This document shows positions 1-26,235 of a DNA stretch of 32,000 bases, piece after piece. Where the stretch lies: assembly GCF_900232105.1 (NCBI RefSeq), contig NZ_LT934425.1, positions 300,001-332,000 of the forward strand, written 5' to 3'. A model generated the notes under the pieces. That model was not told the DNA's origin, did not search any database, and worked only from the letters and a program-made list of their open reading frames with translations. The position numbers were made by a program, and so were the translations under genes. This DNA is from Candidatus Kuenenia stuttgartensis. Its GTDB lineage: Bacteria > Planctomycetota > Brocadiia > Brocadiales > Brocadiaceae. How positions within the stretch are numbered: the first letter of the stretch is position 1; every line of letters begins with the position of its first letter.

Positions 1-340
1 ACTTTGCGGATTCCGCCTTGCACATTACACAAACCAACGCATCTTTGTCACATTCATCACAATGATGAACGTCAAATTCCGATACTTCTTTTTTGCAATC
101 AGGGCACACCATGCCCATCGGAGCAACTGTTTTCCCTTTCATTGGCCCTAAATGCCCTTTTTTACAAGAGGGACACATCGGTAGTTCAATGGTCTCCGGT
201 ATCTGACGTTCCTGTGCCAGTGGTTTTACACTATGTTTAAATGTTTCTTCTTCCGAATACGCATAATTATTGCCCCATAAAACTGCGGAAAATATCACCG
301 CACTAAAAAAAACCGGTATTGACAACTTTTTGTTTTTCAT
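1..340 (-). CDS. Secreted cysteine-rich CxxC-repeat protein, 3' end cut by the window edge; paralog of 12555..13142
   Basis: Absent from the ORF track because it runs off the window. ATG at 338-340 (minus) is preceded by AAGGAG. Hand translation: MKNKKLSIPVFFSAVIFSAVLWGNNYAYSEEETFKHSVKPLAQERQIPETIELPMCPSCKKGHLGPMKGKTVAPMGMVCPDCKKEVSEFDVHHCDECDKDALVCVMCKAESAK... It has a signal-peptide-like N-terminus and aligns with PMCPFCEK...MVCPDCKSEVSALEVHHCDKCGKDVLVCTACQKASAG of the 195-aa protein at 12555..13142. Confidence 0.75.
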   Translation of the reverse strand, partial: MKNKKLSIPVFFSAVIFSAVLWGNNYAYSEEETFKHSVKPLAQERQIPETIELPMCPSCKKGHLGPMKGKTVAPMGMVCPDCKKEVSEFDVHHCDECDKDALVCVMCKAESAK

Positions 341-1022: not shown

Positions 1023-2300
1023 TTATTCAATTACCCGCCAGGCTACAGTACCTTCCTGTTGTTGATACCAGCCAGGGTCATCGTAGCTGGTAATGTCATC
1101 GCGAACCTTTAACACGGTAAACATACCGCCCATTTCGACTGGTCCAAACGGCCCTTTTCCTGTCATCATGGGTAGTGTATTTTTTGGCAAGGGCATGTTC
1201 ATCACTGCCATCCCGGACATGCCGCTCTCACCCATGGCCATATAATCCGGCAGCAGGTTTTGTATTTTCCGTTCCACTCCACTCTGATTTACACCGATCA
1301 TGTTTGGTACGTCATGCTTCATGGCGTTCATAACGTGGTGGTTCTTGTGGCAATGCAAAGCCCAGTCCCCCGGAGCATTTGCCACAAATTGTATGTCACG
1401 CGTAGTACCTGGTGGAACGTTAACCGTGGTTTCAGGCCATTGACCCGAGGCTGGAATGCGCCCTCCATCCGTACCGGTAATCTTAAAATTATAGCCGTGC
1501 AGGTGGATCGGGTGGGAGTCCATGCTCAGATTGGCGACTCTGATTCTCACCCTGTCTCCCAAACGGACTACCAATGGCGCCGTGCCAGGGAACACACGAC
1601 TGTTGAATGTGAAGAGGTTAAAGTCGGTCATGATGTTTGGATTCGGAGTACTTGTGCCGGGTTCGACAAACCATTCCTGAAGAAAGATACAGAAGTCCCG
1701 GTCGATCCTGGGCTGTTCTGGTTCTTTTGGGTGTATAATGAAAAAACCTTCCATCCCCATTGCCATCTGCACCATCTCGTCCGCATGCGGGTGATACATC
1801 TGTGTACCATGCTGACGGAGCGTAAATTCATAGACATAGGTCTCGCCCGGTTTGATTTGCGGCTGGTTCAATCCCCCGACGCCATCCATACCATTGGGCA
1901 GGAGTACGCCGTGCCAGTGGATCGTGGTATGTTCTGCAAGCTTGTTGGTGACTAAGATACGCACACGGTCACCTTCCACCGCTTCGATGGTAGGGCCTGG
2001 CGTCTGACCGTTATAACCCCAGCAGTTGACGATCATTCCTGGCGCAAACTCCCGCTTGACCGGTTCAGCGATCAAGTGAAAAACTTTAACGCCATTGTCC
2101 CACTTCCAGGGGAGGGTGCTCCCATTGAGTGTCGTAGCCGGTGTATAGGACAAGCCATGTATGGGTGGCATGATAGTGGTGGGTTGTGGTGTGGTCACTG
2201 TGTTTACAGCTTCCAACTGCTTGCGACCTAACAGCGTAGAAATACCGCCGGTTAGCAATGCCGCTGCGCTGGAAAGAATCATTTTCCGTCGGGTAATCAT
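1023..2300 (-). CDS. Multicopper oxidase (CopA/CueO-like), Tat-exported
   Basis: 425-aa ORF. The N-terminus MITRRKMILSSAAALLTGG is twin-arginine-like. Copper-ligand motifs are present: TIHWHG, HPH, HPIHLHG, HCHKNHH. AGGAG lies 6 nt upstream, and the gene starts 11 nt after the upstream gene's stop. Confidence 0.92.
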   Translation of the reverse strand: MITRRKMILSSAAALLTGGISTLLGRKQLEAVNTVTTPQPTTIMPPIHGLSYTPATTLNGSTLPWKWDNGVKVFHLIAEPVKREFAPGMIVNCWGYNGQTPGPTIEAVEGDRVRILVTNKLAEHTTIHWHGVLLPNGMDGVGGLNQPQIKPGETYVYEFTLRQHGTQMYHPHADEMVQMAMGMEGFFIIHPKEPEQPRIDRDFCIFLQEWFVEPGTSTPNPNIMTDFNLFTFNSRVFPGTAPLVVRLGDRVRIRVANLSMDSHPIHLHGYNFKITGTDGGRIPASGQWPETTVNVPPGTTRDIQFVANAPGDWALHCHKNHHVMNAMKHDVPNMIGVNQSGVERKIQNLLPDYMAMGESGMSGMAVMNMPLPKNTLPMMTGKGPFGPVEMGGMFTVLKVRDDITSYDDPGWYQQQEGTVAWRVIE

Positions 2301-2311
2301 GATAAATCTCC

Positions 2312-3772
2312 TTAATGATGAATATGGTTAGGGAGTTTTGATGGCTGAGTAGCTGGTTGTTCCACGGGTTGTGCGGGCGGATGGATAGTTTCCTCAGTAA
2401 CTAACAAGCGGCCACCAACTGCACGCTCCAGGTCAGACATGGCAATCCAGTAGTCCCTCAAAGTTTCGATGTATTCACGACCTGTGTTGATCTGGTTTTG
2501 CTTCGCCAGGAGTAACTCATACACCCCAATAAGCATGCCGTTGTAATACAGTTGGGACTCATCCACGATCCGCTGCCGAAGGGGAAGAATGACTTCCTGG
2601 TAGTATTCAACCATGTTGCGTGCAGTCAAAAGCCGATTGCGTATATCCCTGACCTCCGAACGTATATCGATTGCCAGAGAGGAGAGCCGCTGCTGGCTTT
2701 GCCTCAATTGTGCCTCCAACCGTGCGATCTCAGCCTGACGTTGGTCGAAGATCGGTAATTCAATCGTAAGATTAGGTCCTGTAAAATTTACGTTGTCAGC
2801 GACGTCGTGTTCAGTATTTACACCAACGTCAAATACATAAAAATACCGATATTTCCGCGTCAATAACAAGGCATGTGAGATGACCAGCGTCTCCTGTCGT
2901 GCGGCGGCTAAATCCAGGCGTTGTGACACAGCGAGCGACTCCAGATGTTCTAAAGGGATTTCATCTGCTGATAGCTCAGGAAGTCTGCCAGGGAGTTTCC
3001 ACGTAGTATCTGCTCCCCAAAGCCCCATCAGTCGGTTCAGACGCTCACGGTCAACAACGATTTGGATATCTGTTCTTGTCATGTCTAATTTCGCCTGAAC
3101 ATGGAACCCATGTTGATTTGCAAGATCTAACGTCTTTAAAGTGCCGGCATCGTGTTGACGGGTAGCAATGTCAACAGCTGCTTCCGTGGCCTGGACTACA
3201 GTTCGGCGCATCTCTAGTATTTGCTCATCTGCCTGAAGGGCGTAATAAGTTGACCGTACCGCCGCTGCCAGGTTCAAAACGGCATTACCAACACGCAGCT
3301 TCGCTTGTTCAAACTGAGCCGCAGCAACTTTCTTTCGTAAAGGACGCACAAGTAAATCAAGAAAATCCTGAACCACTGAAAATTCTGTATTGGTACTGCG
3401 ATGCCCTCCCACGGTCTTATCGGGGAACCTGAAGCTAGCTCCAAATGTAGGGTTCCGCAACAAACCAGCCTGTACAAGATCGGCCTGAGCAATACCCAGA
3501 TCTTCATATGTCGCCTGCAATGACCGGTTGTTAAGTAATGAAATCTGAACAGCTTCATCTAAGGTCAGTTCCTGTTGTAACATTAACCGGACGGCATCGA
3601 TCACCGCAGCATCCTCCGATGTGCCCTGACTCCAGTGTACCCGGCGACCAATGCGCTGTTCTATGATATTCTGGACGTCAGAAAATCCAGCCTCTTCAGG
3701 AACCGAAGCACAGCCAGCAAGTACTCCAATACACATGAGAGTTATAAATATGGCTATCAATCTCTGTGTCAT
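2312..3772 (-). CDS. cusC: TolC/OEP-family outer membrane efflux lipoprotein (CusC-like)
   Basis: The ORF track gives 2312..3829. I prefer the ATG at 3772 (MTQRLIAIFITLMCIGVLAGCAS, lipobox LAGC) because GGAGGG lies upstream and the ATG overlaps the upstream gene's TGA as ATGA. The length and alpha-helical/beta repeat sequence are typical of OEP family proteins. The symbol is by context only. Confidence 0.85.
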   Translation of the reverse strand: MTQRLIAIFITLMCIGVLAGCASVPEEAGFSDVQNIIEQRIGRRVHWSQGTSEDAAVIDAVRLMLQQELTLDEAVQISLLNNRSLQATYEDLGIAQADLVQAGLLRNPTFGASFRFPDKTVGGHRSTNTEFSVVQDFLDLLVRPLRKKVAAAQFEQAKLRVGNAVLNLAAAVRSTYYALQADEQILEMRRTVVQATEAAVDIATRQHDAGTLKTLDLANQHGFHVQAKLDMTRTDIQIVVDRERLNRLMGLWGADTTWKLPGRLPELSADEIPLEHLESLAVSQRLDLAAARQETLVISHALLLTRKYRYFYVFDVGVNTEHDVADNVNFTGPNLTIELPIFDQRQAEIARLEAQLRQSQQRLSSLAIDIRSEVRDIRNRLLTARNMVEYYQEVILPLRQRIVDESQLYYNGMLIGVYELLLAKQNQINTGREYIETLRDYWIAMSDLERAVGGRLLVTEETIHPPAQPVEQPATQPSKLPNHIHH

Positions 3773-4122
3773 TGTTTTCCCTCCGATTCGGTTTTGGAAA
3801 GTGCTGCCGGGACCAGTCCCATCCCACACTTAGGGCATCTGCCCAGGCTTGATTGTACTACTTCGGCATGCATCGGGCAGGTATACATTGTGGGTACGGT
3901 TGTGGGTGGATGCGTAGGCAAAGTTGGTTCGGTAGGCGGTTGTTCCGCTGTGACAGGTACCTCGGCCTGGAGCCAATTCGATCGTGGAGCAAATGCAGAT
4001 TCCAGTGCGTTCGGATTTGCCGGATCGTTGGTAGATATTGGTATTTGAAGTGTCTGGCTAGCACAACCCGTCAAGATTGTCACACACATAGCAGTCGTTA
4101 CTATCCGTGCTATCATTGTCAT
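3769..4122 (-). CDS. Small lipoprotein with a C-terminal heavy-metal-binding domain (HMBD, YxCPMH...CPxCGMxL)
   Basis: 117 aa. Signal and lipobox: MTMIARIVTTAMCVTILTGCAS. A Pro/Thr-rich linker is followed by YTCPMHAEVVQSSLGRCPKCGMGLVP. A G-rich SD sits upstream. The stop overlaps the cusC-like start (ATGA). Confidence 0.8.
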   Translation of the reverse strand: MTMIARIVTTAMCVTILTGCASQTLQIPISTNDPANPNALESAFAPRSNWLQAEVPVTAEQPPTEPTLPTHPPTTVPTMYTCPMHAEVVQSSLGRCPKCGMGLVPAALSKTESEGKQ

Positions 4123-5023: not shown

Positions 5024-8000
5024 TTATATAATCATACCTGTTTCTGCAATACCGGGGTCTTTATTCAATTCCTTTTTAAACTTACGTTCTTTTATCCATG
5101 CATTCAGGCATGGCACCAGAAAAAACACAATCATCGCCATTGTCATGCCCCCAATGGAAGGGATCGCCATTGGTTTTGCAATTTCAGCGCCTGCACCGGT
5201 TGACCATATAATGGGCATCAGGCCAATAAATGTTGTCGCAGAGGTCATTACGGCCGGGCGTATCCTTCTCGTCCCTGCCAAAACAATGGTATCCCTTATC
5301 TCCTGAATACTTTTTATTTTTTTATCCTTAAACAGATCATTTATATATGTAGTGATAAGTACACCATCGTCCTGGACGATGCCAAACAGAGATATAAAAC
5401 CTACCCAAACGGCCACGCTAAAATTATATCCGAATAAATACTGCAGCAGAATGCCGCCTGCAATGGCAGTCGGTACACTGGTTAATAAAATAATCAGCAC
5501 TTGCGAAAATGATCTGAATGCCACGAAGAGGATAATAAAGCCAACAAACTGAGACAACGGGACAAGTATCTGCAATCTCTTTCTTGCCCGTACCTGATTC
5601 TCAAACTGTCCGCTCCATTGAATAAAATAACCCTGCGGCAACATGACTTTCTCAGATACCACCTTAGAGGCTTCTTCGACAAAGCTCATGGGGTCTCTGT
5701 CCCGTACGTTCATAAGGACATACGCCCTTAAAAGGGCGTTTTCACTGCTGATCATGGCAGGTCCCATGACGTAACGGATATCTGCAACCTGTGTAAGGGG
5801 GATAAGTTTGCCTGTGGAGCTTGAAACATAAATCCTTTTCAGTGCATCAAAATTATCGCGGAGTTCCCGGACGTATCTGACCCGTACAGGATAGCGTTCC
5901 CTGCCTTCCACTGTCGTTGTAATATTTTCTCCCCCTATAGCGGTCTCAATAATATCCTGCACATCCTTAATATTTATGCCATAACGTGCAATCTCCTCCC
6001 GCTTTATTATGAATTCAAGATATGGCTTTCCGGTAATCCTCTCCGCATAAAGATCAACCGCCCCCGGAACATCCCTTAAAGCCTTTTCAACATCCAGTGC
6101 CAGTTGCTGCAGCACGTTCAGGTCTGTCCCAAATATCTTAACGCCAATCGAGGTGCGGATACCGGTTGCAAGCATGTCAACGCGGTTTACTATGGGTTGT
6201 GTCCATATGTTTGCCACGCCTGGTATCCTCATGGCTTCATCCATTTCCTGTATAAGCTCCTGTTTCGTAATCCTCCGCTCATCGGGCAGAAACAAGTGAA
6301 AGACCGGGTGCAGGAAGGAAGGCACATATTGCAGAAAACCATACTCTATCTTTTTCTTTCGCCATTCCTCTTCAGGTTTTAAGGTGACAATCGTCTCAAA
6401 CATCTCGGCAGGCGCCGGATCGGTAGGGGTTTCCGCCCTGCCCAGCTTTCCCACGACTATATCCACCTCCGGAAATGACTTGATGATAACATCCTGTTTC
6501 TGCATCACCTTGAACGCATCGGTAAGCGCAACGCTCGGCAGCATAACCGGCATAAAAAGGATGGACCCTTCGTCCAATGGTGGCATAAATTCCCTTCCGA
6601 TCCTTTTCGCAACAAAAACAGATAAAATAATCACAACGATGGGAATCGTAAGAAATAGTCTCTTATGCTCCAATACCCAACGAAGTATCGGCGTATACCC
6701 GCTCAGGAGCAGCCTTGAGGTATAATTTCTCTCCATTGGCCTCAGTTTGCCTTTTAACATAAAAAAGCAAAGTGTCGGCGCCAGAGTAAGTGCGAACACA
6801 ACAGACGCTCCTATTGCAAACGTCTTCGTCCATGCGAGGGGTTTAAAAAGTTTTCCCTCCTGCCCGGTAAGCCCAAACACAGGCATAAACATAAAAATAG
6901 TAGTAAGGCCGGCAAAGAGGATTGGTGCCCCCACTTCTTTGGAAGAGTCAAGTATTATTTGAAACCTGCTCTTTTTGCCTTCATATTCTATAAGATTCCT
7001 GTATATATTTTCGGTGACAATAATTGCCATATCACTCACCTCGCCAATGGCAATAGCAATACCGGTAATGGTCATAATGTTTGAATCAATCCCCATAAAA
7101 TACATGCCCAGGAAGGAAATGATTATAGCTATAGGGAATCCAAGACAGCAGACAATAATACTTCGAATGTGCAATAAAAAGAGGGCTACAACGACAGAGG
7201 TAATAATTATTTCTTCTATAAGCGCCTCTTTCAGGGTGGCAATGACGCGATATATAAGCCCTTCTCTGTCGTAGAAAGGTACTATTTTTACCCCTGGCGG
7301 CAAACCGGGTTCGATTTCCTTTATCTTTTCCTTTATTCGCTTTATAACCTTTAACGGATTTTCCCCCTGGCGCATAATAACAACCCCGCCTGCAACCTCT
7401 GCGCCTTCCTTGTCCAGCGCCCCCCGCCTGAAGTCGCCTCCAATCTGAACCGTTGCTACGTTTTTTACAAAGACAGGCACGCCGTTATTGCTGCCAACGG
7501 TAATATTCTCGATATCGGTAACGTTTTTAATAAACCCAAGGCCGCGTATAATAAATTCCATATTATTGTTTTCCACCACCTTGGCACCCACATCGATATT
7601 GCTTTTTCGAACAGCCTCAAACACATCTCCAACAGTCAGGTTGTGCGCCATTAATTTATTGGGGTCCACATCCACCTGATATTGTTTGACAAAACCGCCC
7701 ACACCAGCAACCTCCGAGACGCCTTCAACGGCATTGAGCTGGTATCTGACAAACCAATCCTGGATAGACCGCAATTGTCCGAGATCATATCCTTTCCCCT
7801 CAACGGTATACCAAAAAATCTGTCCAAGTCCGGTAGCATCCGGACCTAGTCTTGGGAGAACATCTTTTGGAAGCAATGCCTGTACAAAGTTTAATCTTTC
7901 AAGCACCCTGGAACGTGCCCAGTAAAAATCGATATTTTCCTTGAAGATAATATAGACCATGGAGAAACCAAACGCAGACTGTGAGCGTATGACCTTTACA

Positions 8001-8233
8001 CCAGGAACGCCCAGGAGATTAACGGTCAGAGGATAAGTAACCTGATCCTCCACGTCCTGCGGGCTACGGCCAGGCCAGTCGGTGAAGACAATACACTGGT
8101 TTTCCCCGATATCAGGAATAACGTCCATGTTGATATGCCTCACCCCGAAGAGACCGCCGAATATCACCAGCAGGTAAAAGCATATGACGAGGAAACGGTT
8201 GTTAAGACATAGTTCGATAAGTTTATTGATCAT
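5024..8233 (-). CDS. cusA: CusA/CzcA-family heavy-metal efflux RND permease
   Basis: 1069 aa with a 12-TM RND architecture. The N-terminus MINKLIELCLNNRFLVICFYLL...DVIPDIGENQCIVFTDWPGRSPQDVEDQVTYPL is typical of the HME-RND family. The protein looks full length and intact. Confidence 0.93.
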   Translation of the reverse strand: MINKLIELCLNNRFLVICFYLLVIFGGLFGVRHINMDVIPDIGENQCIVFTDWPGRSPQDVEDQVTYPLTVNLLGVPGVKVIRSQSAFGFSMVYIIFKENIDFYWARSRVLERLNFVQALLPKDVLPRLGPDATGLGQIFWYTVEGKGYDLGQLRSIQDWFVRYQLNAVEGVSEVAGVGGFVKQYQVDVDPNKLMAHNLTVGDVFEAVRKSNIDVGAKVVENNNMEFIIRGLGFIKNVTDIENITVGSNNGVPVFVKNVATVQIGGDFRRGALDKEGAEVAGGVVIMRQGENPLKVIKRIKEKIKEIEPGLPPGVKIVPFYDREGLIYRVIATLKEALIEEIIITSVVVALFLLHIRSIIVCCLGFPIAIIISFLGMYFMGIDSNIMTITGIAIAIGEVSDMAIIVTENIYRNLIEYEGKKSRFQIILDSSKEVGAPILFAGLTTIFMFMPVFGLTGQEGKLFKPLAWTKTFAIGASVVFALTLAPTLCFFMLKGKLRPMERNYTSRLLLSGYTPILRWVLEHKRLFLTIPIVVIILSVFVAKRIGREFMPPLDEGSILFMPVMLPSVALTDAFKVMQKQDVIIKSFPEVDIVVGKLGRAETPTDPAPAEMFETIVTLKPEEEWRKKKIEYGFLQYVPSFLHPVFHLFLPDERRITKQELIQEMDEAMRIPGVANIWTQPIVNRVDMLATGIRTSIGVKIFGTDLNVLQQLALDVEKALRDVPGAVDLYAERITGKPYLEFIIKREEIARYGINIKDVQDIIETAIGGENITTTVEGRERYPVRVRYVRELRDNFDALKRIYVSSSTGKLIPLTQVADIRYVMGPAMISSENALLRAYVLMNVRDRDPMSFVEEASKVVSEKVMLPQGYFIQWSGQFENQVRARKRLQILVPLSQFVGFIILFVAFRSFSQVLIILLTSVPTAIAGGILLQYLFGYNFSVAVWVGFISLFGIVQDDGVLITTYINDLFKDKKIKSIQEIRDTIVLAGTRRIRPAVMTSATTFIGLMPIIWSTGAGAEIAKPMAIPSIGGMTMAMIVFFLVPCLNAWIKERKFKKELNKDPGIAETGMII

Positions 8234-8341
8234 AGGAATAAGAAACCACAGGTTGCACGGATTAAAAAAAAGAACAAGTAACCTGATTGCTCAGATTATT
8301 TTATTTTGTATTCAAACCTCTGTCATCCATTTTGATAAAAT

Positions 8342-8708
8342 TCAATTTTTGAACCTTCTATAATGAAGGGATTCTTCGCCAAAGTTTATAAGCAATCCTG
8401 TGCTATGGCGACTAGTAATAAGGCTATTTATTAACTGTGCTTCATCGACCTTTGACAAAGATTTTTCTGCTTTTATTTTCAACTATAATTTCATTGTAAA
8501 CAATGAAATCCGTAACATAATATTTTTTCAACTTTTGTTCTTTATAAAATATTTCCAATCGAAGTTGAGAAATAAATGGGGCATTTCTTAATTTGAACTC
8601 AATTTCCAAACATTCCTGATAAACGGCCTCCAGGCGTCCTGGTCCTATGATTCTGTGAACCTCCATTGCCGCTCCAATAATTTCATGTGTTCTTACATCT
8701 CTATCCAT
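8342..8708 (-). pseudogene. GxxExxY family protein (PD-(D/E)XK-like), frameshifted
   Basis: Frame A (8442..8708) reads MDRDVRTHEIIGAAMEVHRIIGPGRLEAVYQECLEIEFKLRNAPF...IIVENKSRKIFVKGR and stops. The expected C-terminus resumes in another frame: KIKAEKSLSKVDEAQLINSLITSRHSTGLLINFGEESLHYRRFKN, with its stop at 8342-8344. The shift lies in the A-rich run near 8470-8490. Total length would be ~122 aa, typical of the family. Confidence 0.75.
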
Positions 8709-8814
8709 ATATTTACCAACACCCTTTTATTTTACCAATTCTTAATCTTGAACAGGTTTTATCTGTGTGATCTGTACTACTATCCATCAATTTCTTGTTT
8801 TTTATGCGTGTTTT

Positions 8815-10371
8815 TCATGCCGCCATTTCCGTAAGTGCTTTAATATCAAGGGCTGAAGCGGTCATCAGTGAACAAGAGAACTTCTGGCCTTTCTCCGTCA
8901 AAACATAGCGGTTGGCCCTCGGAACTTTGCGGATTAGACCGTGTGCCCGCAGCATCTTTATCCGTCGGGTCGTTCGTCCGGAATATTTCTTTTGCTGATC
9001 CTTGCCGGATTGTTCGGATTCCCGGTAAAGCCACTTACGCAAATCATGGTTGCGGAATCCATTTATCGCGTTTTCGCCTTTGGACAGGAACATCAGCATC
9101 TGGTAATCATCCTGCTGCCAGGGATTCAAACCTCGATACCTCTTGCCCTCTTTGACAACCTTGTTACAAGCGCTGCTCACCACTTCTTTCAGTTTCTCCT
9201 CTACCTGAGCCGCCGCCAAAGCATCCCCATAACGATCATTGCATTGTTGGCTCACCTCACACCGTCGATGAAGATCGCTTACGCCCTTACGCATCTTCTG
9301 CCATGACGCCGGTTTGCCTTCATCATCATTGGGACTCCGAAAGACCTTAAAGTCCCGCGTATTATTGATCGTTGTCTCAATACGCAAGAGACTACCGCTC
9401 TTGTTATACATCTTCACTGAATTATAATTCACACTGTGCTTGACCCGTATACCTTCATAGCGTCTTCGATAGTCGCTGATAACCTCATCAGGGGCAGCGC
9501 CTGCAAGGTTACGCCTACCCAAATACTTCATCACCGAAGAACTGTCGCAAACCCGCATCGCATGATGAACAAACGATGGAAACAACTCCTCCAATGCCTC
9601 AACCGATTTAAACATGATGTCCGTCGCCCACTCCGTCTCATCCGCAGACCAGTAATACTCCGGTTCCAACGGACGAAGAATCTGCGACAATGCCGGGCAA
9701 CTGCCTAACGCAAGCCCGTTCAGCAGCTTCGCCCAGTCAGTCTTAAGCTGCTCATGGAGCAGAACCTGCGCAGCCGCAATATCCTCTATACGCACAAAAC
9801 AGTTGCCGTCCTTAACATAATCAATACCTTGCTTCTGAAGTTGCCGCTCCAGCCAATGACGACCATTGAGACAAATGAAAATATTAAACGGCGCCCAACT
9901 CTGGATACGAACATGACCAAAACCAAACACTGGATCATTAAAATAATGATACACAAAGACACACTTGCGGGGCGCCATTACCAACTCGAGCTTCTTGCTG
10001 GCCTTGTTGCCCTTGACCATCGGCGCAATACAAGGCTCTACCACACTCAACAGGCAGATGGAACCTTCCGTAATCCTCTTATCCGCCGCGATCTGGCGAG
10101 CCAACTTCTCCTTATCAACACCGCTGCTCATCAAATACCGCACCTCGATACCCAAATCTTTCGCCCGCGATTCACAACTGTCTCGCACCTGTGCCGTAAG
10201 CCCATTGACCCAACCGGAAAAATCCTTAAGCAGAATTCTCGCTTGGTTCATGAATGTTCCCATCCCACGCTCACTGGCCAACCACCGCAATGTCCCGCGA
10301 AAACGAATCCTGTCCAGACCGCTTATTGCACCCACGATCCTGTCTCGATATAATTCCATCAACTTATTCAT
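8815..10371 (-). CDS. Conserved-looking 518-aa protein of unknown function with a basic winged-helix-like C-terminus; possible mobility protein
   Basis: A long uninterrupted ORF with a strong SD (GGAGGA 7 nt upstream). The C-terminal segment RTTRRIKMLRAHGLIRKVPRANRYVLTEKGQKF resembles a wHTH wing. I found no DDE, HUH, Tyr or Ser recombinase motif. It lies inside the putative insertion. Confidence 0.8.
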   Translation of the reverse strand: MNKLMELYRDRIVGAISGLDRIRFRGTLRWLASERGMGTFMNQARILLKDFSGWVNGLTAQVRDSCESRAKDLGIEVRYLMSSGVDKEKLARQIAADKRITEGSICLLSVVEPCIAPMVKGNKASKKLELVMAPRKCVFVYHYFNDPVFGFGHVRIQSWAPFNIFICLNGRHWLERQLQKQGIDYVKDGNCFVRIEDIAAAQVLLHEQLKTDWAKLLNGLALGSCPALSQILRPLEPEYYWSADETEWATDIMFKSVEALEELFPSFVHHAMRVCDSSSVMKYLGRRNLAGAAPDEVISDYRRRYEGIRVKHSVNYNSVKMYNKSGSLLRIETTINNTRDFKVFRSPNDDEGKPASWQKMRKGVSDLHRRCEVSQQCNDRYGDALAAAQVEEKLKEVVSSACNKVVKEGKRYRGLNPWQQDDYQMLMFLSKGENAINGFRNHDLRKWLYRESEQSGKDQQKKYSGRTTRRIKMLRAHGLIRKVPRANRYVLTEKGQKFSCSLMTASALDIKALTEMAA

Positions 10372-10505
10372 AAGTAGTGTCCTCCAAATTGTCTGATTAC
10401 TATTTACGAGGATACTACTATACTTTATAATAAACTAAAAATCACCTTTTTGGTTGCGGCCAAAGGCCGCGCTAGGAAATCTGTGGTTTCAAAGTATTTT
10501 TTTGC

Positions 10506-12485
10506 CTATTTTTCTTCCTTAAACTCCATCGCTCCGCCATACAATGCACTTGCTCCGCCTGTAAGCTGGCTCTGGGAATCGATGAGGAAATTTGCTGATG
10601 TGACAACCCTGTCACCTTCTTCAAGCCCCTCCATCACAGGATAATAATCGCCCGCTTTTGGCCCAAGAATCACTTCCTTCCCAACGTATTGACCGTTGCC
10701 TTTATCAATATAGACAATCTTTCGTACACCCGTATCCAAAACTGCCGTGGCAGGAATGGCAAGCATTTGTGTGATTTTTTCAAGACGCATTCCGCACCTG
10801 GTGCAATTATCAGGTTTATCCGATGTTACTTCAGGATGCATGGGGCAGGTGTAAATGGTACGTTTTCTGTGTTCTGTTTTTTTCACCTTCATTCCCACAC
10901 CTTCCCTAACTTCCCATCTGCCCATTTGCCTTTTACAGTCGGGACATTCACCAGGCTTATCCGAGGTCATGCATGCCATAGGGCACATATAGACATACTT
11001 TTGTATCTTTTCACCAGTGGGCGAAGTTACCGTTATACTCTTCTGAAGCATCATACCACACATAGGACAAGACTTTGGGGAAGTATCAGGGTCCCATTCC
11101 TGCGGACAAATGCACGTCACCGTTTCATCAACAGGCATTTCCTTTTTTTCGAGATGCATACCACATACCGGGCAATCACCCGGTTTGTCAGACACATAAC
11201 AATTCATCGGGCATACATACTCATATTCAGTTTCCCCAATTCCCTCTGTTTTGCCTTCGGCAGTCATTTCAAGCCGCGCCGAGGTTTTTTTTATAAATGG
11301 GACATTATCCTCGGGGCATATACCGGGTCTGCTTGATTTAATTTCAGGATGATTGGGACATACATAATCCAGTCCGCTCACATAGGTTCTGTCTCGTTCC
11401 TCCAGTTCTTCAACAGGTATACGTATGCGGGCATTGACATACATGGCAGGTTTGAGTCTGAGCTGACGGTTAGGAATATCACACCGTATTTTCACAGAAC
11501 GCGTCTTATCGTCAAGAAACGGTTCTATAAACGATACCGTTCCGATAAATGCCTCTCCGGGATATGCAGGAGTTGTGACTTCCACCTCCTGTCCAACCTT
11601 TATCCACGCCATTTCATACTCATAAATGTTGGCCATCATCCAAACCTTGGAAAGATCGGCAAGGGTGTATATCATCTCGCCCGTCATAACATATTGCCCT
11701 TCCAGCATCTTCTTCTCTATGACAATACCGCTTATCGGGGCATAGATGATCGTATGTTGTTTTATTTTTCTGTTTCTTGCAAGTTCTTCAATCTGTCTTT
11801 CACTAATACCCCACCATAACAACCTTTTTTTGGTTGCATCTATGAGAGATATTGTGCCGTCCACCACTTCCTTAAAAGGGCTATTCTCTACTTTTTCAAA
11901 GGTTTCCAGCGCCAACAGATACTCTTTCTGTGTAGATACCAGATCAGGACTATACATCCATACCAATGACTCGCCTTTCACTACCTCTGTACCGGTGAAA
12001 TCAATAAACAGTTTGTCTATCCTGCCAGGAATCCATGCGGAAACAACCGCTTTAAGCCGTTCATCGTATTCAATCAATCCAACCGTATAAACATCTTTAG
12101 TTAACGACCGGAATCCGATAACGTCAGTTTTAACCTGTGCCAGTTTACGGGCGCGTTCACTTAATTCTACGGAGGCTAATGCACCTTCTTCCTCCATACC
12201 TGCACCTTTTTCGTATACAGGAACTAAATCCATGGCGCAAATAGGGCATTTTCCTGGTTTATCCATCCTGACGGAAGGATGCATCCCGCATGTCCAGTAG
12301 ATTATCTTCTTTTCTTTTGTTTCTTCAGCATTTGCGGAAGAAATAAAATTTATCCCATCCTGTAGAGACGCATTGCAATATGTCTCTACATAATTGGATA
12401 TTTGTATACCAGAAAGAACACTAAGTATGACAGTGACTATTATTATAAAATATCTCAAGGAAAGAAATTTTTGTTTAAACAACAT
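10506..12485 (-). CDS. cusB: CusB-like RND periplasmic adaptor (membrane fusion protein) carrying six HMBD-like modules
   Basis: The ORF track starts at TTG 12503. I prefer ATG 12485 (MLFKQKFLSLRYFIIIVTVILSV, a TM anchor). The MFP core is present (barrel-sandwich, hairpin and beta-barrel sequence, then LAIPATAVLDTGVRKIVYIDKGNGQY...VTSANFLIDSQSQL). HMBD modules: IYWTCGMHPSVRMDKPGKCPICAMDL; YVCPNHPEIKSSRPGICPEDN (degenerate); YVCPMNCYVSDKPGDCPVCGMHL; CICPQEWDPDTSPKSCPMCGMML; YMCPMACMTSDKPGECPDCKRQM; YTCPMHPEVTSDKPDNCTRCGMRL. Confidence 0.9.
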   Translation of the reverse strand: MLFKQKFLSLRYFIIIVTVILSVLSGIQISNYVETYCNASLQDGINFISSANAEETKEKKIIYWTCGMHPSVRMDKPGKCPICAMDLVPVYEKGAGMEEEGALASVELSERARKLAQVKTDVIGFRSLTKDVYTVGLIEYDERLKAVVSAWIPGRIDKLFIDFTGTEVVKGESLVWMYSPDLVSTQKEYLLALETFEKVENSPFKEVVDGTISLIDATKKRLLWWGISERQIEELARNRKIKQHTIIYAPISGIVIEKKMLEGQYVMTGEMIYTLADLSKVWMMANIYEYEMAWIKVGQEVEVTTPAYPGEAFIGTVSFIEPFLDDKTRSVKIRCDIPNRQLRLKPAMYVNARIRIPVEELEERDRTYVSGLDYVCPNHPEIKSSRPGICPEDNVPFIKKTSARLEMTAEGKTEGIGETEYEYVCPMNCYVSDKPGDCPVCGMHLEKKEMPVDETVTCICPQEWDPDTSPKSCPMCGMMLQKSITVTSPTGEKIQKYVYMCPMACMTSDKPGECPDCKRQMGRWEVREGVGMKVKKTEHRKRTIYTCPMHPEVTSDKPDNCTRCGMRLEKITQMLAIPATAVLDTGVRKIVYIDKGNGQYVGKEVILGPKAGDYYPVMEGLEEGDRVVTSANFLIDSQSQLTGGASALYGGAMEFKEEK

Positions 12486-12554
12486 AATTATCGCACCTTT
12501 CAAAATATAGCGTAATGAAGTAATGATTTTGCCTTAAACTTTTAGAGTAAAAAC

Positions 12555-13142
12555 CTATTTTTGAAACCGCTCTTGTTTTTTTTCACAAATTGGACAGGCC
12601 AGAAAGTCTATATCGCATGTCTTGCAATGCTGAATAAGCCATTCCTGCGACTTCATCCTGCAATCCCGGCATTTCATTTTCCAGGTTGCCAATGCCTTTC
12701 CCTTCACATATCTTGAGAGTACCTTTTTGCACTTGGGGCACTTGCCTATCATTGTTTCGGCTTTTAAACCAGCGGATGCCTTTTGACACGCTGTGCATAC
12801 AAGAACGTCTTTTCCACACTTGTCACAATGATGGACTTCGAGTGCTGATACTTCACTTTTGCAGTCAGGGCAAACCATACTTTTTGCGGCAAGTGCCTTT
12901 TCTTTCTCCGGACTTACATACACTTTCTCACAAAAAGGGCACATGGGTGGCTCTGTGGTTGAATGCTCAGCCAGCGGGTCGTTTTCACTGTGTTTGTGCG
13001 CTACCTCGCCAGCATACATCAGATTACCTCCCCACAGAAGTAGATACATAATTACCGGCGCAACTGTTTTTATAAATTTCTTACAAACCATGGTATCACC
13101 ACTTTTCATTAAAAGATTACTAATTCTTTTCCCTTTTACCAT
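12555..13142 (-). CDS. Secreted cysteine-rich protein with two tandem 4xCxxC (double zinc-ribbon-like) units
   Basis: 195 aa. ATG 13142 is preceded by GGAGGT at 8-nt spacing and overlaps the ATPase 3' end by 23 nt. The hydrophobic leader is VAPVIMYLLLWGGNLMYA. Unit A is MCPFCEKVYVSPEKEKALAAKSMVCPDCKSEVSALEVHHCDKCGKDVLVCTACQK. Unit B is KCPKCKKVLSRYVKGKALATWKMKCRDCRMKSQEWLIQHCKTCDIDFLACPICEK. Confidence 0.8.
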   Translation of the reverse strand: MVKGKRISNLLMKSGDTMVCKKFIKTVAPVIMYLLLWGGNLMYAGEVAHKHSENDPLAEHSTTEPPMCPFCEKVYVSPEKEKALAAKSMVCPDCKSEVSALEVHHCDKCGKDVLVCTACQKASAGLKAETMIGKCPKCKKVLSRYVKGKALATWKMKCRDCRMKSQEWLIQHCKTCDIDFLACPICEKKQERFQK

Positions 13143-15876
13143 ATTTAACTACCTCCATGATAATGAAGGTAAGAGAAGAAAAACCAAAGACGGTAATCCA
13201 ATCAATTAACTCCAGCGGTCTTACTCTGAAAATATCTTCGAAGAAAGGGGTATAGACGATAGCCACCTGTATGGCCAACGAAATCCCCGCTGCCAGCAGG
13301 AGTTTATTATTGGTAAAAACACCAATTTCAAATAAGGAACGTCTTGCATTCCTGCAGTTAAAAGAGTGAAATAATTGTGAGACGACCATCACACAGAAGG
13401 CAATTGTTCTGGCCAGCTCGATATCCCCACGCAACAGGTGAGGAGCCGCTTCATTACAAAACCAGTGGTAAAGATAGTCAGGTATTGCACGGGTTCCATA
13501 GTACAGGACATACGTATATGCCAGAAGGGTACTCATGGCAATGAGAAAACCCTGAAATAGAATCAGGATACCTAGACGCTTGTCTATGATTTGTTCTGTT
13601 GACCTTCTTGCCAGTCTTTTCATAATGTCAGGATCTACCGTATCGACACCCAAGGCCAATGCCGGCAGACCATCGGTGGCAATATTTATCCATAATATCT
13701 GGATAGGGAATAGGGGGATAGGAAGATTGAATATCGATGCGAGGAGCATTGTCAAAATCTCACCGGTATTACACGAGAGCAGATAGTGGATGGACTTCTT
13801 AATGTTGTCATAAATACCTCGTCCCTCTTCAATGGCTGCCTCTATGGAAGCAAAATTGTCATCCGTTATAACCATATCGGACGCCTCTTTTGTGACATCG
13901 GTTCCTGTAATACCCATGGCTACGCCGATGTTTGCTTCTTTTACAGCAGGGGCGTCATTTACGCCGTCACCGGTCATGGCCACAACGTCTCCCTGTTTCT
14001 TCCATGCCTTTACAATCCTGAGTTTGTGTTCAGCAGTTACACGTGCATATACGGCTATCTTTGACACTTCTTTTGCTAAATCGTCATCGGAAAGCGCATC
14101 TAACTCTATTCCATCAATAGCCTTTGAGGAATTGCTGCTAAGAAATCCCAGCTCTTCCCCAATAGCCCGGGCTGTATTCTTGTGATCACCCGTAATCATG
14201 ACCGTCTTTATACCGGCTGTATGACAAACGGCAACGGCTTCTTTGACCTCTGGTCTGGGTGGGTCAATCATGGCTAATAGTCCCACAAAGATCATCTCTC
14301 TTTCTACTGTGTCAGGGACAGGGTTGGTGATTTCCCGGTCAAGAGGCTTGTATGCCACACCGAGGACGCGCAGGGCAGACCCTGCCAAATTATTGTTTTC
14401 CTCCAAAATGACCTGTATATCGTTTTCTGTCAAATCCCTTGTCGTTCCATCATGATAAATCTTTGTACAATCCTGTAAGATTACATCAGGCGCACCTTTT
14501 TCACATACCTGTAAAGCAGGGGAGGTACCTCTTATTGTAGACATCTTCTTTCGTTCTGAATCAAAAGGAATTTCTGAAATGAGGGGGAATTGTTTATCCA
14601 ACATTTCCTTCCAGATACCTGTCTTTCCTGCTGCACTTAAGATGGCGCCCTCTGTAGGGTCGCCAATAACCTTCCATGTAGCGTCTTCTTTTTTAAGGTG
14701 GGTATTGTTACATAACACACCTATTTCCAGTGTCTTTTCGAGTGCTTTCTGGTCAATTCCCAGAAGAGATTCTCCGTTGACAAGAAAATTTCCATCCGGC
14801 ATGTAACCCGTCCCCGATACGTCAATGGTTTTACCATTGGCAAATATCTTTCTTACGGTCATCTCGTTTTGTGTTAAAGTGCCTGTTTTGTCTGAGCAAA
14901 TAACTGTAGCACATCCCAAAGTTTCTACTGATGGAAGCTTTCGGATCAGTACGTGCCGTTTCACCATGCGTTGCACCCCTAAGGCTAAGGCAATAGTCAC
15001 GATTGCTGGAAGACCTTCCGGAATGGCAGCCACGGCAAGGCTCACAGATATGAGGAATGCCTCTAATAATGGATCCTTTCTACACAACTCCAAAAGGAAT
15101 ACGATTGTTACGATCCCCAAACACAAATAAACCAATTTTTTCCCAAACACCTCGAGCTTTCGCTGAAGGGGGGTCTCTTCCTTCCCTGCCTCCTGAATGA
15201 GACCGGCAATCTTGCCCAACTCTGTGTGCATTCCCGTTGTTACAATAACGCACGTCCCTTTACCACTCGTTACCGAGGTCCCCATAAATACCATATTTTT
15301 CTGATCGGCAATGGGTAAAGAAGGATTGGGGAGTGGTTCAGTGGACTTACCAACCGGCGTTGACTCTCCTGTAAGAGAAGCCTCTTGGGTCATAAAACTA
15401 AAGGAAGAGCATAGTCTGCCATCAGCAGGGACGTAATCACCTGCCTCCAACAATACAATATCTCCCGGCACAATATCCCGGGAGGGGATGGATTGTATTT
15501 CGCCGTTCCGTGTTACCCTTGAAAAGGGTGCAGACATTTTTTGTAAGGCCTCAAGTGATTTCTCCGCGCGGTATTCCTGTATGAACCCAATAATCGCATT
15601 AATAATAACGATAGCAATAATGGCTAACGCATCGATCCATTCCCTCAAAACTCCGGAGACTATGGCGGCAGCAATCAATACCCAGACAATAAAGTTATTA
15701 AACTGCCCCAAAAAGAGGATGAAGGGAGATACACCTTTTTTTTCTTCCAGTTGATTGTATCCGTATTTCTTTAGCCTGTTTTCCGTTTCGTTAAGGCTAA
15801 GTCCGGCGTCAACCGAAGTATCAAGGTTCTTTATTACCTCATTGGCATGCATTGTATGCCACTGTAATTCAGTCAT
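13120..15876 (-). CDS. P-type cation-transporting ATPase, P2 (SERCA/PMCA-like, Ca2+/cation) subtype
   Basis: 918 aa. Motifs present: CSDKTGTLT phosphorylation site, TGDGVNDAPA, TM4 IPEGLPA, and TM6 WINIATDGLPALALG. There is no N-terminal CxxC metal-binding domain and no CPC motif, so it is not a P1B copper pump. Confidence 0.9.
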   Translation of the reverse strand: MTELQWHTMHANEVIKNLDTSVDAGLSLNETENRLKKYGYNQLEEKKGVSPFILFLGQFNNFIVWVLIAAAIVSGVLREWIDALAIIAIVIINAIIGFIQEYRAEKSLEALQKMSAPFSRVTRNGEIQSIPSRDIVPGDIVLLEAGDYVPADGRLCSSFSFMTQEASLTGESTPVGKSTEPLPNPSLPIADQKNMVFMGTSVTSGKGTCVIVTTGMHTELGKIAGLIQEAGKEETPLQRKLEVFGKKLVYLCLGIVTIVFLLELCRKDPLLEAFLISVSLAVAAIPEGLPAIVTIALALGVQRMVKRHVLIRKLPSVETLGCATVICSDKTGTLTQNEMTVRKIFANGKTIDVSGTGYMPDGNFLVNGESLLGIDQKALEKTLEIGVLCNNTHLKKEDATWKVIGDPTEGAILSAAGKTGIWKEMLDKQFPLISEIPFDSERKKMSTIRGTSPALQVCEKGAPDVILQDCTKIYHDGTTRDLTENDIQVILEENNNLAGSALRVLGVAYKPLDREITNPVPDTVEREMIFVGLLAMIDPPRPEVKEAVAVCHTAGIKTVMITGDHKNTARAIGEELGFLSSNSSKAIDGIELDALSDDDLAKEVSKIAVYARVTAEHKLRIVKAWKKQGDVVAMTGDGVNDAPAVKEANIGVAMGITGTDVTKEASDMVITDDNFASIEAAIEEGRGIYDNIKKSIHYLLSCNTGEILTMLLASIFNLPIPLFPIQILWINIATDGLPALALGVDTVDPDIMKRLARRSTEQIIDKRLGILILFQGFLIAMSTLLAYTYVLYYGTRAIPDYLYHWFCNEAAPHLLRGDIELARTIAFCVMVVSQLFHSFNCRNARRSLFEIGVFTNNKLLLAAGISLAIQVAIVYTPFFEDIFRVRPLELIDWITVFGFSSLTFIIMEVVKYGKREKN

Positions 15877-15900: not shown

Positions 15901-16812
15901 TCATGTCTTATACTGCATTTTTAATCTTTTCCTGTAATTCACACAGGGATGGCTTTCACTTGTTTCGCACAGATGCTTGTCTTCCTCGTTGTCTTTATAT
16001 AATCTTTGTATGCACACTTCGAGAGGCGACTCTGACACACTATATTTGTCAGACGGCAACAATATACACGATGCTGTATAACCTTCCGGATTAATATGGA
16101 TGAATTCACTTCCCGCCTTCCTGCTACAGTCCAAGAGACGGCCATCATTTGGAAGATGCAGTAAGTAGGTATTCGTTCTTTCTTTCAGATTTAAAAACCA
16201 TTGCCTAAATAAAGTCCGTTGTTGTGTTGATAGGGATAGCCCGTAATCATGCGATCTGCCAGTCGGTATATATTCTATAAATAATCCTAACTTGGCGCCA
16301 AAAGGGTACTTTTCCAAAAATGCCTCTTCTACTTGAATTAATTCAACATTCTCTGCTGTAACCGTGATAGAAAAACCATAGAGTATTTTATTGTTTTTCA
16401 GATTTGCAAAGGCATTCATAACATTATGATAGACACCAGCGCCCCGTCGTTTATCAGTCTCTCTTAAATCTCCTTCCAAACTAATTACCGGAATTATATG
16501 CGGTAATCCGGACAACTTTTTTGCAACAGCTTCAGAAATCATAGTCCCATTCGTTATCAGGATAAAAAAACTATTCTTATGGCCGCTTAAAATCTCCATG
16601 AGATTTGGATATAGCATAGGCTCGCCACCCGTAAGCATAAAAATGAAACTACCCAATGATTCAGCTTGTAAAAGAATATTTTCTAACATTTCTCCCGGCA
16701 AAATTTTTTTTTCCTTATAGATCCTGGCATAACAATGATCACAGGCAAGATTGCAATCAGAGAGAAGACTTATAAAAATAGTATGAGGGATGGGATTGCC
16801 ATTATTATCCAT
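15901..16812 (-). CDS. Radical SAM protein with a twitch/SPASM-like C-terminal Cys motif
   Basis: 303 aa. CNLACDHC is the CxxxCxxC motif, GGEP is present, and the C-terminal CSRKAGSEFIHINPEGYTASC fits C-x14-G-x4-C and is followed by 3 more Cys. The start is uncertain: there is no SD, and the frame stays open upstream. Confidence 0.85.
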   Translation of the reverse strand: MDNNGNPIPHTIFISLLSDCNLACDHCYARIYKEKKILPGEMLENILLQAESLGSFIFMLTGGEPMLYPNLMEILSGHKNSFFILITNGTMISEAVAKKLSGLPHIIPVISLEGDLRETDKRRGAGVYHNVMNAFANLKNNKILYGFSITVTAENVELIQVEEAFLEKYPFGAKLGLFIEYIPTGRSHDYGLSLSTQQRTLFRQWFLNLKERTNTYLLHLPNDGRLLDCSRKAGSEFIHINPEGYTASCILLPSDKYSVSESPLEVCIQRLYKDNEEDKHLCETSESHPCVNYRKRLKMQYKT

Positions 16813-22323: not shown

Positions 22324-22449
22324 AATATATCTTGATTATTTGTTTGTTTCCTTTCTGAGATTACCATCATTTTGTTTCCACTGTTTCCCGACTCATATTT
22401 TTGCACTGCACAGTAAGACTTTCATACATTAAACTATTATCACAAAATA

Positions 22450-22677
22450 TTACTGTTCGTGCTTATGGCCGTAATGATGGTTATGCCCATCGTTATGGTG
22501 GTTTACTTCCATTTTTGCCAAATCCATCCCACACACAGGACATTTTCCAGGCTCATCGCTTTTACTGCCTTCATGTTTCATGTGGCAAAGATAACTATCC
22601 TCTATGCCATGTTCTGCCTCCATATATTCATAATTTTCATGGGCAGTTTCTGCACTGTGATGATGATCATGACTCAT
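22450..22677 (-). CDS. His-rich 75-aa protein with a central HMBD motif and no signal peptide
   Basis: MSHDHHHSAETAHENYEYMEAEHGIEDSYLCHMKHEGSKSDEPGKCPVCGMDLAKMEVNHHNDGHNHHYGHKHEQ. There are 16 His in 75 residues. GGGGAAG is a plausible SD about 5 nt upstream. Confidence 0.7.
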   Translation of the reverse strand: MSHDHHHSAETAHENYEYMEAEHGIEDSYLCHMKHEGSKSDEPGKCPVCGMDLAKMEVNHHNDGHNHHYGHKHEQ

Positions 22678-22800
22678 GTGCTTCCCCTGTTCCCGGAGTG
22701 ATTGTACATAGGCATAAACTATTATTATATAGTACAGTGTGTATGGTAATATGAGACATTACCTAGTATAGCGTTTCATTAAAATATCTACATTGATACC

Positions 22801-22880
22801 GTCATTGCGAGCGACAGCGAAGCAATCTTAAGTCTTTTGGGAACAAGAGATTGCTTCGTCACGCCACTCCCCGCAATGAC
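22801..22880. repeat. REP-like long hairpin (gtcattgcg...gaagcaatct arms) followed by a T-run
   Basis: gtcattgcgagcgacagcgaagcaatct (22801-22828) pairs with agattgcttcgtcacgccactccccgcaatgac (22848-22880): the outer 9 bp and inner 10 bp pair, with an internal bulge. It is followed by attttttttc on the plus strand. Confidence 0.8.
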
Positions 22881-22915
22881 ATTTTTTTTCGTACACCTTT
22901 TAGCGAAACGATTTA

Positions 22916-24769: not shown

Positions 24770-24836
24770 AAAAACCCTCCTCCATTGCTTTTACATAACG
24801 CAGAAGCAATCTTTAAATAATATATTCTGGAATAAT

Positions 24837-26162: not shown

Positions 26163-26235
26163 ATTTAACATTTCGGATTTTACCATTAAATATTTTGACA
26201 AAAAATGCAAAGAAATCTCTGATAAGGTACTGAAA

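Follow-up and report, generated by a model that had tools for sequence, protein, structure and literature searches.

A cysteine-rich, putatively exported protein family confined to anammox bacteria and encoded beside copper efflux genes

The gene analysed here, X1, lies in a 32,000-nucleotide window of the Candidatus Kuenenia stuttgartensis genome (contig NZ_LT934425.1, positions 300,001 to 332,000; all coordinates below are those of the window). It is located between the gene of a P-type ATPase (13120-15876) and that of a CusB-like adaptor (10506-12503), all three on a common strand. Its product carries a leader-like N-terminus and two tandem modules of four CxxC knuckles each, and belongs to a protein family, designated X, that is confined to one clade, the anammox bacteria. 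Both the gene and its conservation are real. We propose, with a probability of about one half, that the X proteins are exported, thiolate-rich metal-binding proteins, the metal probably being Cu(I), which would act as chaperones or buffers serving Cus-type efflux; in this proposal we infer export, the binding of a metal and which metal it is, the pairing of the knuckles, the partner and the compartment.

Gene and protein architecture

The maximal open reading frame (ORF) of X1 in the ORF list is 12555..13142 on the minus strand (195 amino acids), just as described in an earlier note on this DNA that was made from the sequence alone. The same note had placed the start codon, with a strong Shine-Dalgarno (SD) sequence, within the 3' end of the ATPase gene. 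This is probably wrong, and the start at 13142 was rejected: in the closest relative, found at locus L016 (protein 83% identical), the ATG at 13142 is replaced by ACG and the second in-frame ATG by CTG, while GGAGGT and ATG 13142 are codons within the ATPase frame (M-E-V ... K-Y-G). Since L016 has neither of these two upstream ATGs, the third in-frame ATG at 13091 (MVCKKF...) was taken as the start; it is the conserved one, and nearly all homologs begin there in the alignments. From these comparisons, X1 most likely comprises 12555..13091 on the minus strand and encodes an exported-type 2 x (4 x CxxC) protein of 178 amino acids, beginning about 28 nt past the ATPase stop codon without overlap. 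The mature protein is identical whichever of the three candidate starts is used. The distance of 51 nt from the X1 stop to the adaptor gene, also given in the earlier note, is right if the adaptor starts at a TTG; the likelier start, ATG 12485 with the SD sequence AAGGTG, gives a spacer of 69 nt, compared with 70 nt in L001. No terminator-like site was found on the minus strand between the ATPase, X1 and cusB genes.

The signal-peptide-like leader, MVCKKFIKTVAPVIMYLLLWGGNLMYA (13011..13091, minus strand; residues 1-27 of the 178-residue form), is the sole hydrophobic segment of X1. It is followed by a linker rich in His and Glu, GEVAHKHSENDPLAEHSTTEPP (12945..13010, minus strand), for which the family consensus is E-E-T-H-K-H-S-E-K-A-L-A-P-E-H. 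Then come unit 1 (12771..12944, minus strand; MCPFC-x19-CPDC-x10-HCDKC-x6-CTAC), where the Cys and His are invariant and knuckle 2 reads M-x-C-x-x-C, and unit 2 (12558..12749, minus strand; KCPKC-x19-CRDC-x10-HCKTC-x6-CPIC), which ends in a short C-terminal helix. In the numbering of the 195-residue form, used for all residues of X1 below, the units span residues 68-119 and 135-186, and a regular expression search matched both of them exactly to C-x2-C-x19-C-x2-C-x11-C-x2-C-x6-C-x2-C. A seventeenth cysteine, C20 in the leader, stands outside this pattern and is not conserved. The two halves of X1 align without a gap (41% identity, E=3e-12), which agrees with the two mutually alignable units and 16 patterned cysteines reported previously. 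The unit pattern proposed at that time is correct as to the four CxxC per unit and has to be amended ahead of the third knuckle, where the spacing is x10-H-C, with 11 residues between the knuckles, not x11-12-HC. The four CxxC knuckles of each X1 module, to which a single invariant His is added, provide eight thiolates, and the mature protein is lysine-rich, about 150 residues long and free of any further hydrophobic segment.

Conservation of the cysteines in the X family goes far beyond chance. An alignment of 26 sequences (30-85% identity to X1) shows H104 and 14 of the 16 patterned cysteines without any substitution; the two exceptions, C183 and C186, are conserved in at least 90% of the sequences, as is H172. 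All 16 patterned cysteines are conserved at 94-100% in an alignment of 52 sequences, where the three His residues of the linker are kept in 75-79%. In both units a methionine stands two residues ahead of knuckle 2 (M72, 96%; M139, 92%), forming the M-x-C-x-x-C motif, and 99 of 114 homologs contain at least two such motifs. The spacing between successive knuckles over the family is 19-21, then 8 or 11, then 6 residues.

Export was judged by four crude rules: a net positive n-region, a hydrophobic 12-mer core above 1.6, a small-x-small cleavage site and the absence of a later 19-mer resembling a transmembrane segment. The X1 leader has a KK n-region, a hydrophobic core of 13-16 residues with a 12-mer Kyte-Doolittle mean of 1.98, and a V/A-Y-A site cut before E-E (in X1, ...MYA before GE); the family consensus is (V/A/G)-Y-A, cut before x-E. 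All four rules hold in 97 of the 106 family members with an intact N-terminus, the failures being mostly mis-called starts, and the leader peptide assigned to X1 in the earlier note is supported as a signal-peptide-like feature of the family. Two distant relatives, P0121 and P0131, have lipoprotein-type leaders instead. Window neighbours also encode envelope proteins: CusB, an outer membrane factor, a lipoprotein that contains an HMBD module, and a multicopper oxidase whose leader is of the RR type. Taken by its leader, X1 is probably exported by the Sec pathway, and its association with OEP/CusB/CusA systems would favour the periplasm over the anammoxosome as its destination.

Distribution of the family

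Homologs of X fell into 57 clusters in a single-sequence search and into 107 clusters at 90% identity in a profile search, so that the earlier note's reservation, an ORF with no conserved homologs at all, is not borne out; the cysteines are conserved among these clusters. Every cluster that bears an organism name comes from anammox bacteria: Brocadia, Jettenia, Kuenenia, Scalindua, Scalinduaceae, Hypogeohydataceae, Bathyanammoxibius and unclassified Brocadiales or Planctomycetota. Scanning a single genome for each GTDB species gave 49 X loci, again all in anammox Planctomycetota, with two or three paralogs in several genomes. An exhaustive HMMER search over 1.84 billion representative proteins returned 40 hits at E<=1e-3 and 20 at E<=1e-10. 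The source databases call the members 'hypothetical protein' or give them an unspecific automatic name, 'phage FluMu protein Com' and 'putative heme protein' among them. Searches of the available literature library brought up no account of the X family, either in anammox bacteria or elsewhere.

Two units are present in 76 members and three in 16; those with a single unit are mostly fragments. The family evolves through shuffling of linker and unit copy number. As separate observations, P0117, encoded on the contig of L044, has three copies of the linker motif E-x-HKH-x-EKGLAP-x-HEVE ahead of a single Cys unit, and at L012 a two-unit gene is directly followed by a paralog of one unit that has a leader of its own (P0128, positions 8528-8836 of that locus). 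The most distant relative that could be placed, the lipoprotein P0131 (28% identical), is encoded on a contig of 53.5% GC immediately after a CusA-type pump, and a homolog of the X-associated multihaem cytochrome described below lies nearby. Another set of hits (P0129, P0130, P0133 and P0139) consists of asparagine-rich, leaderless, eukaryote-like proteins with 3-5 tandem units and the nearly X-like spacing CPxCGE-x20-CLKCG-x11-CxxC-x5-CxxCP (HMMER, E 1e-7 to 1e-4). Judging by sequence, the bare Cys module may predate the exported anammox family.

Genomic linkage to metal homeostasis genes

To describe the neighbourhood of X, reference proteins were searched by tblastn against 64 fetched loci, and counts were made over the 57 that are not duplicates. 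A metal-homeostasis gene lies within 1 kb of X and on the same strand in 47 of the 57. Five loci have no metal gene, and in three of these X is less than 1 kb from the contig end on the upstream side, which is the usual position of the partner. X adjoins cusB/cusA in the window and in L001, L005, L010, L012, L016, L021, L047, L049, L050, L060, L062-L064 and L066.

The loci show several architectures. In type (a), found in Brocadia, Jettenia and many others, the order is (radical SAM)-P2A ATPase-multihaem cytochrome-(YHS)-X. Type (b), radical SAM-ATPase-X-CusB-CusA, is that of the window, L001, L016 and L021, and type (c), radical SAM-ATPase-CusB-CusA-X, occurs in Kuenenia and relatives (L047, L049, L050). 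The most divergent, deepest-branching members, which mostly have three units, are encoded in type (d), CsoR-CopA-X-OEP-CusB-CusA (L010, L012, L062-L064); here CsoR keeps its Cys/His/Cys ligands, and CopA has the motifs GMxCxxC, CPC, YN and MxxSS, which constitute the P1B-1 copper signature. A BlaI-BlaR pair accompanies X and OEP-CusB-CusA in type (e) (L005, L032, L033, L060), and X follows a multicopper oxidase (MCO) gene in type (f), MCO-(YHS)-X (L020, L061 and the second paralog of the window, X2). What these contexts have in common is the handling of soft metals outside the cytoplasm. The co-occurrence with operons of heavy-metal efflux pumps of the resistance-nodulation-division type (HME-RND), which the earlier note had put forward as a check, is found, with CusA/CusB operons and with other copper genes as well. 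Its placing of X inside a Cus operon holds for the window and several further loci, as one context among several, since the multihaem cytochrome is present in 24 of the 57 loci, typically together with the P2A ATPase and YHS genes and away from any RND pump.

The operon of X1 continues downstream with components of such an efflux system, all on the minus strand. The adaptor gene (10506..12503, likely start ATG 12485) encodes a CusB-like protein (Pfam HlyD_D23, 6.7e-74; best NCBIfam match CusB) with five HMBD (PF19335) modules, one near the N-terminus and four in a C-terminal extension, an unusually heavy Cys/His decoration. The heavy-metal RND pump encoded at 5024..8233 scores 1034.9 bits with the NCBIfam CusA/CzcA model and shares 41% identity with CusA of E. 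coli; conserved in it are A399, D405 and E412 (A-x5-D-x6-E) and the Met triad M573, M623 and M672. This set of residues marks the monovalent Cu(I)/Ag(I) class of HME-RND pumps, and by it the window pump is classed as a true CusA type. A CusC-like outer membrane efflux protein (2312..3829; Pfam OEP, 6.2e-34) and a multicopper oxidase related to CopA, PcoA and CueO (1023..2300; Pfam Cu-oxidase_3 and Cu-oxidase_2; NCBIfam copper_res_A, 5.4e-55), with a twin-arginine leader (N-terminus MITRRKMIL), are encoded further downstream. Between the genes of the pump and the outer membrane factor lies that of a small lipoprotein with an LTGC lipobox and a C-terminal HMBD (3769..4122; Pfam HMBD, E=3.2e-10), which by its sequence may likewise be a periplasmic carrier of metal encoded in the X1 operon.

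A second CxxC paralog, X2 (2..340, minus strand), is cut by the window edge; it was found by tblastn (51% identity to X1, E=3e-30) and retains a leader of its own, a His-rich linker and unit 1. About 680 nt separate X2 from the multicopper oxidase gene upstream of it, an MCO-X pairing as in L020 and L061.

Directly upstream of X1, the ATPase gene (13120..15876, minus strand; Pfam Cation_ATPase_N/C and E1-E2) encodes a P2A-type enzyme, PMR1/SERCA-like with a PEGL motif. Its best NCBIfam matches are of the PMR1/SERCA type (769 and 696 bits, slightly below the equivalog cut-offs), and it is not a copper pump of the P1B type. Synteny of this ATPase gene with X is seen at many loci. Upstream of it is a radical SAM gene (15901..16812, minus strand; Pfam Radical_SAM). 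The pair of radical SAM and P2A ATPase genes recurs in anammox metal loci (L001, L016, L018, L021, L028, L047, L049 and others), often followed by the multihaem cytochrome of about 500 amino acids and a YHS protein.

Fold and comparison with known families

X1 matches nothing in Pfam above threshold. The double zinc ribbon families DZR_2 (PF18912, 20.6 bits, cut-off 27) and Zn_ribbon_6 (PF07191, 18.6 bits, cut-off 25) stay below it, as do FYVE and CRIPT; NCBIfam gave no match and PHROGs a single meaningless one. Compared with the sequences of the PDB, the X family profile found only generic zinc-ribbon stretches, the best in PolD DP2 (E=0.006). AlphaFold2 was run with the family alignment, and the mean predicted local distance difference test (pLDDT) score of full-length X1 was 60.9, with 81-90 for unit 2, 47-62 for unit 1 and below 50 for leader and linker; a single-unit model reached 72.9. 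Each unit is predicted to consist of successive beta-hairpins with a short helix at the end, and Foldseek found no match in the PDB at E<0.1 with either the full-length or the single-unit model. X1 may thus be called zinc-ribbon-like by its pattern and predicted secondary structure, without demonstrable membership in a described family. For the double-zinc-ribbon arrangement suggested in the earlier note, the four knuckles per unit are present and invariant, and the fold is a putative one, drawn from sub-threshold Pfam scores and from a moderate AlphaFold model with no significant PDB match.

The double zinc ribbon families (DZR_2, Zn_ribbon_6/YfgJ and DZR, PF12773) resemble X in having four CxxC per module, the prediction for X is likewise rich in hairpins, and precomputed matches to these Pfam families exist on distant X homologs. 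They are cytoplasmic, however, and X differs from them in its leader, its fixed 19/11/6 spacing, its invariant His and its context in metal loci. The HMBD, YHS and TRASH modules are small Cys/His knuckle modules placed outside the cytoplasm, as X is by prediction, in shared operons, and the CPxC knuckle is common to them, but HMBD is a single 28-residue Cys3His unit, unlike the Cys8 modules of X. Homology of X to HMBD was rejected, as hhalign, run with 219 X units and 28 HMBD repeats, reached a probability of 16.6% over 8 columns; Pfam likewise found no HMBD in X1. The paper found to cite PF19335 takes HMBD as an MxCxxC chaperone motif and is uninformative for X. With the MxCxxC loops of the HMA domain in Atx1, CopZ and MerP, the M-x-C-x-x-C of knuckle 2 is alike at the level of the motif only.

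Two further assignments were discarded. A c-type haem protein, as the UniRef name 'Putative heme protein' of a Jettenia homolog would have it, is ruled out by the absence of CxxCH from X1 and from all 114 homologs. The DnaJ cysteine-rich domain (PF00684), of which some distant X homologs alone have precomputed matches, is ruled out by the knuckles CPxCK/CPDCK/CDKCGKD/CxxCQK, which lack GxG, and X1 itself does not match it.

Csp1 of methanotrophs and bacterial metallothioneins are exported or soluble thiolate-rich proteins which buffer Cu(I), and are in this respect a conceptual analogue of a 'sponge' role for X. Csp proteins are Tat-exported four-helix bundles, and they resemble X neither in sequence nor in predicted fold.

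Proposed role and alternatives

The following course may be imagined for a Cu(I) chaperone or buffer of this kind. In the anoxic periplasm of anammox bacteria, X would bind a thiophilic metal, most likely Cu(I), through its CxxC knuckles, with the His-rich N-terminus perhaps binding metal too. Eight thiolates per module leave room for two tetrahedral sites and therefore for four sites in X1, and there would be six in its three-module relatives. X would then buffer the Cu(I) or deliver it to the neighbouring CusCBA-type pump, possibly by passing it to the Cys/His HMBD modules of the CusB adaptor or to the methionine site of CusA. The operons of X contain many small modules of the Cys/His kind (HMBD, YHS), and a strictly anaerobic cell is able to keep these reduced.

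In such a role X would fill the niche that is held in E. coli by the methionine-based CusF, the Cu(I)/Ag(I) chaperone of CusCFBA. The earlier note had suggested a metal chaperone or sponge in the place of CusF, and this idea is supported in part. Both proteins are small, exported (X by prediction) and encoded in or beside a cusCBA-type operon, X1 directly before cusB, and both have a His-rich mature N-terminus (NEHHHETM in CusF). CusF, on the other hand, is an OB-fold with one thioether Met2His(Trp) site, whereas X has two or three thiolate Cys8 modules; there is no sequence similarity between them, and X, unlike CusF, is also found away from RND pumps. A tblastn search with E. coli CusF gave, at BLAST sensitivity, only two noise matches in the window and the fetched loci L001-L064 (E>0.1, opposite strand), and X1 has no Pfam match to CusF (PF11604) at E<=0.1.

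Several points weigh against a role in Cu(I) efflux. Every member is annotated as 'hypothetical'. The fold is uncertain, given the moderate pLDDT of the models and the lack of a PDB match at E<0.1. Cys4 zinc-ribbon sites are classically structural zinc sites, and for this reason the cysteines of X may never meet the transported metal. The 24 of 57 loci with the cytochrome typically contain the P2A (Ca/Mn-like) ATPase set and no RND pump nearby, a context no less compatible with a redox function or some other role than with copper export. Finally, the absence of CusF is one of the fetched loci only, at the sensitivity of BLAST.

One alternative is an adaptor held together by structural zinc, where the eight Cys of a unit would hold two permanent Zn ions in a rigid module, and X would be an accessory or regulatory subunit that docks on a transporter, adaptor or cytochrome and carries no substrate metal. 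The nearest likenesses in sequence and fold are indeed all structural zinc modules (sub-threshold DZR_2 and Zn_ribbon_6, the zinc fingers of PolD DP2 and Rpb9-type ribbons), and the cytosolic eukaryote-like proteins mentioned above have matching knuckle spacing at E 1e-7 to 1e-4. Few exported bacterial proteins, however, contain structural zinc ribbons; exchangeable binding is suggested by the M-x-C-x-x-C motif and by the conservation of the His-rich linker; and the genes with which X travels (P2A ATPase, CopA, CusCBA, MCO) share a metal, not one docking partner. We consider this explanation unlikely. A redox protein, whose Cys4 sites would bind iron in the manner of rubredoxin or whose CxxC would cycle between thiol and disulphide, appears more unlikely still. 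It would serve as an electron carrier together with the exported multihaem cytochrome, for instance so that Cu(II) or Fe(III) is reduced ahead of transport. It gains from the commonest architecture, in which the cytochrome lies directly upstream of X (it is present in 24 of the 57 loci and is the nearest partner in 19), and from the cytochrome homolog near the lipoprotein form P0131; rubredoxins, too, have knuckles of the forms CPxC and CxxCG. It loses by the CsoR-CopA-X-OEP-CusBA and window-type loci, which have no cytochrome beside X, by the lack of any rubredoxin (PF00301) or thioredoxin-like Pfam match in X1 even at E<=0.1, and by the absence of the haem motif from every member of the family.

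The radical SAM gene, which stands two genes upstream of X in the window and in many loci, brings up a further explanation, in which this enzyme would cross-link the cysteines of X as in sacti- or ranthipeptides before export. Weak NCBIfam matches of the radical SAM protein do include peptide maturases of the SPASM type, but all its NCBIfam matches are far below the cut-offs, and the gene tracks the P2A ATPase and not X, being absent from the CsoR-CopA-X, BlaI-X and MCO-X loci. For that reason a precursor of a ribosomally synthesised and post-translationally modified peptide (RiPP) was ruled out as the main explanation. Moreover, X has at least 150 residues and a Sec-type leader, unlike known RiPP precursors; this explanation is highly improbable.

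The Cu(I) chaperone or buffer may be carried further into a bolder and, taken as a whole, rather doubtful proposal. Anammox bacteria might have exchanged the Met-based Cu(I) relay (from CusF to the CusB N-terminus and on to CusA) for an all-Cys/His relay, which would be workable only in a permanently anoxic envelope and in which X would load the HMBD modules of CusB. X might also serve the module of P2A ATPase, multihaem cytochrome and YHS protein, which could be a system for handling metals that has so far escaped notice and that may supply or protect the anammoxosome.

Significance

Anammox bacteria are responsible for a large part of the nitrogen lost worldwide. They also serve to treat wastewater, a use in which inhibition by copper and zinc is a practical problem. 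To the best of our knowledge, their handling of metals is poorly understood. X is an unannotated, clade-restricted protein that accompanies essentially every anammox copper-export module. Periplasmic accessory metal-binding proteins of copper efflux loci are known as such from the role of CusF; what would be new is one with a fold and ligand chemistry unrelated to those of CusF and confined to anammox bacteria. Should a thiolate relay for Cu(I) outside the cytoplasm exist, metal trafficking in the periplasm would there be solved in a structurally new way, and strict anaerobes would be shown able to use cysteine chemistry where aerobes use methionine. X also offers a single, small and soluble handle on the acquisition of metal by HMBD-decorated CusB adaptors.

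Further features of the window

The cusB and cusA genes of the window are separated by an insertion of about 2.27 kb (8234..10505, minus strand), which was delimited by DNA alignment with the junctions of L001 and L021 and is absent from syntenic loci; in L001 and L021 the two genes overlap (ATGA), and in the window this junction is split. The insertion holds orf518 (8815-10371) and a stop-riddled remnant resembling GxxExxY/PD-(D/E)XK proteins. No family match was found for orf518 in Pfam, NCBIfam or PHROGs, apart from a weak C-terminal winged-helix match, and it is absent from all other fetched loci. Terminal inverted repeats were looked for around the insertion and none were found. It may be a mobile element that affects expression of the pump.

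Further upstream on the minus strand (20704-27682), the window encodes a BlaI-like repressor, a BlaR1/M56-M48 peptidase, an outer membrane factor, a 617-residue multihaem cytochrome with CarboxypepD_reg and a Cache/HD-GYP protein. In the type (e) loci, too, X and cusCBA are flanked by a BlaI-BlaR pair, which suggests a metal-responsive pair of regulators.

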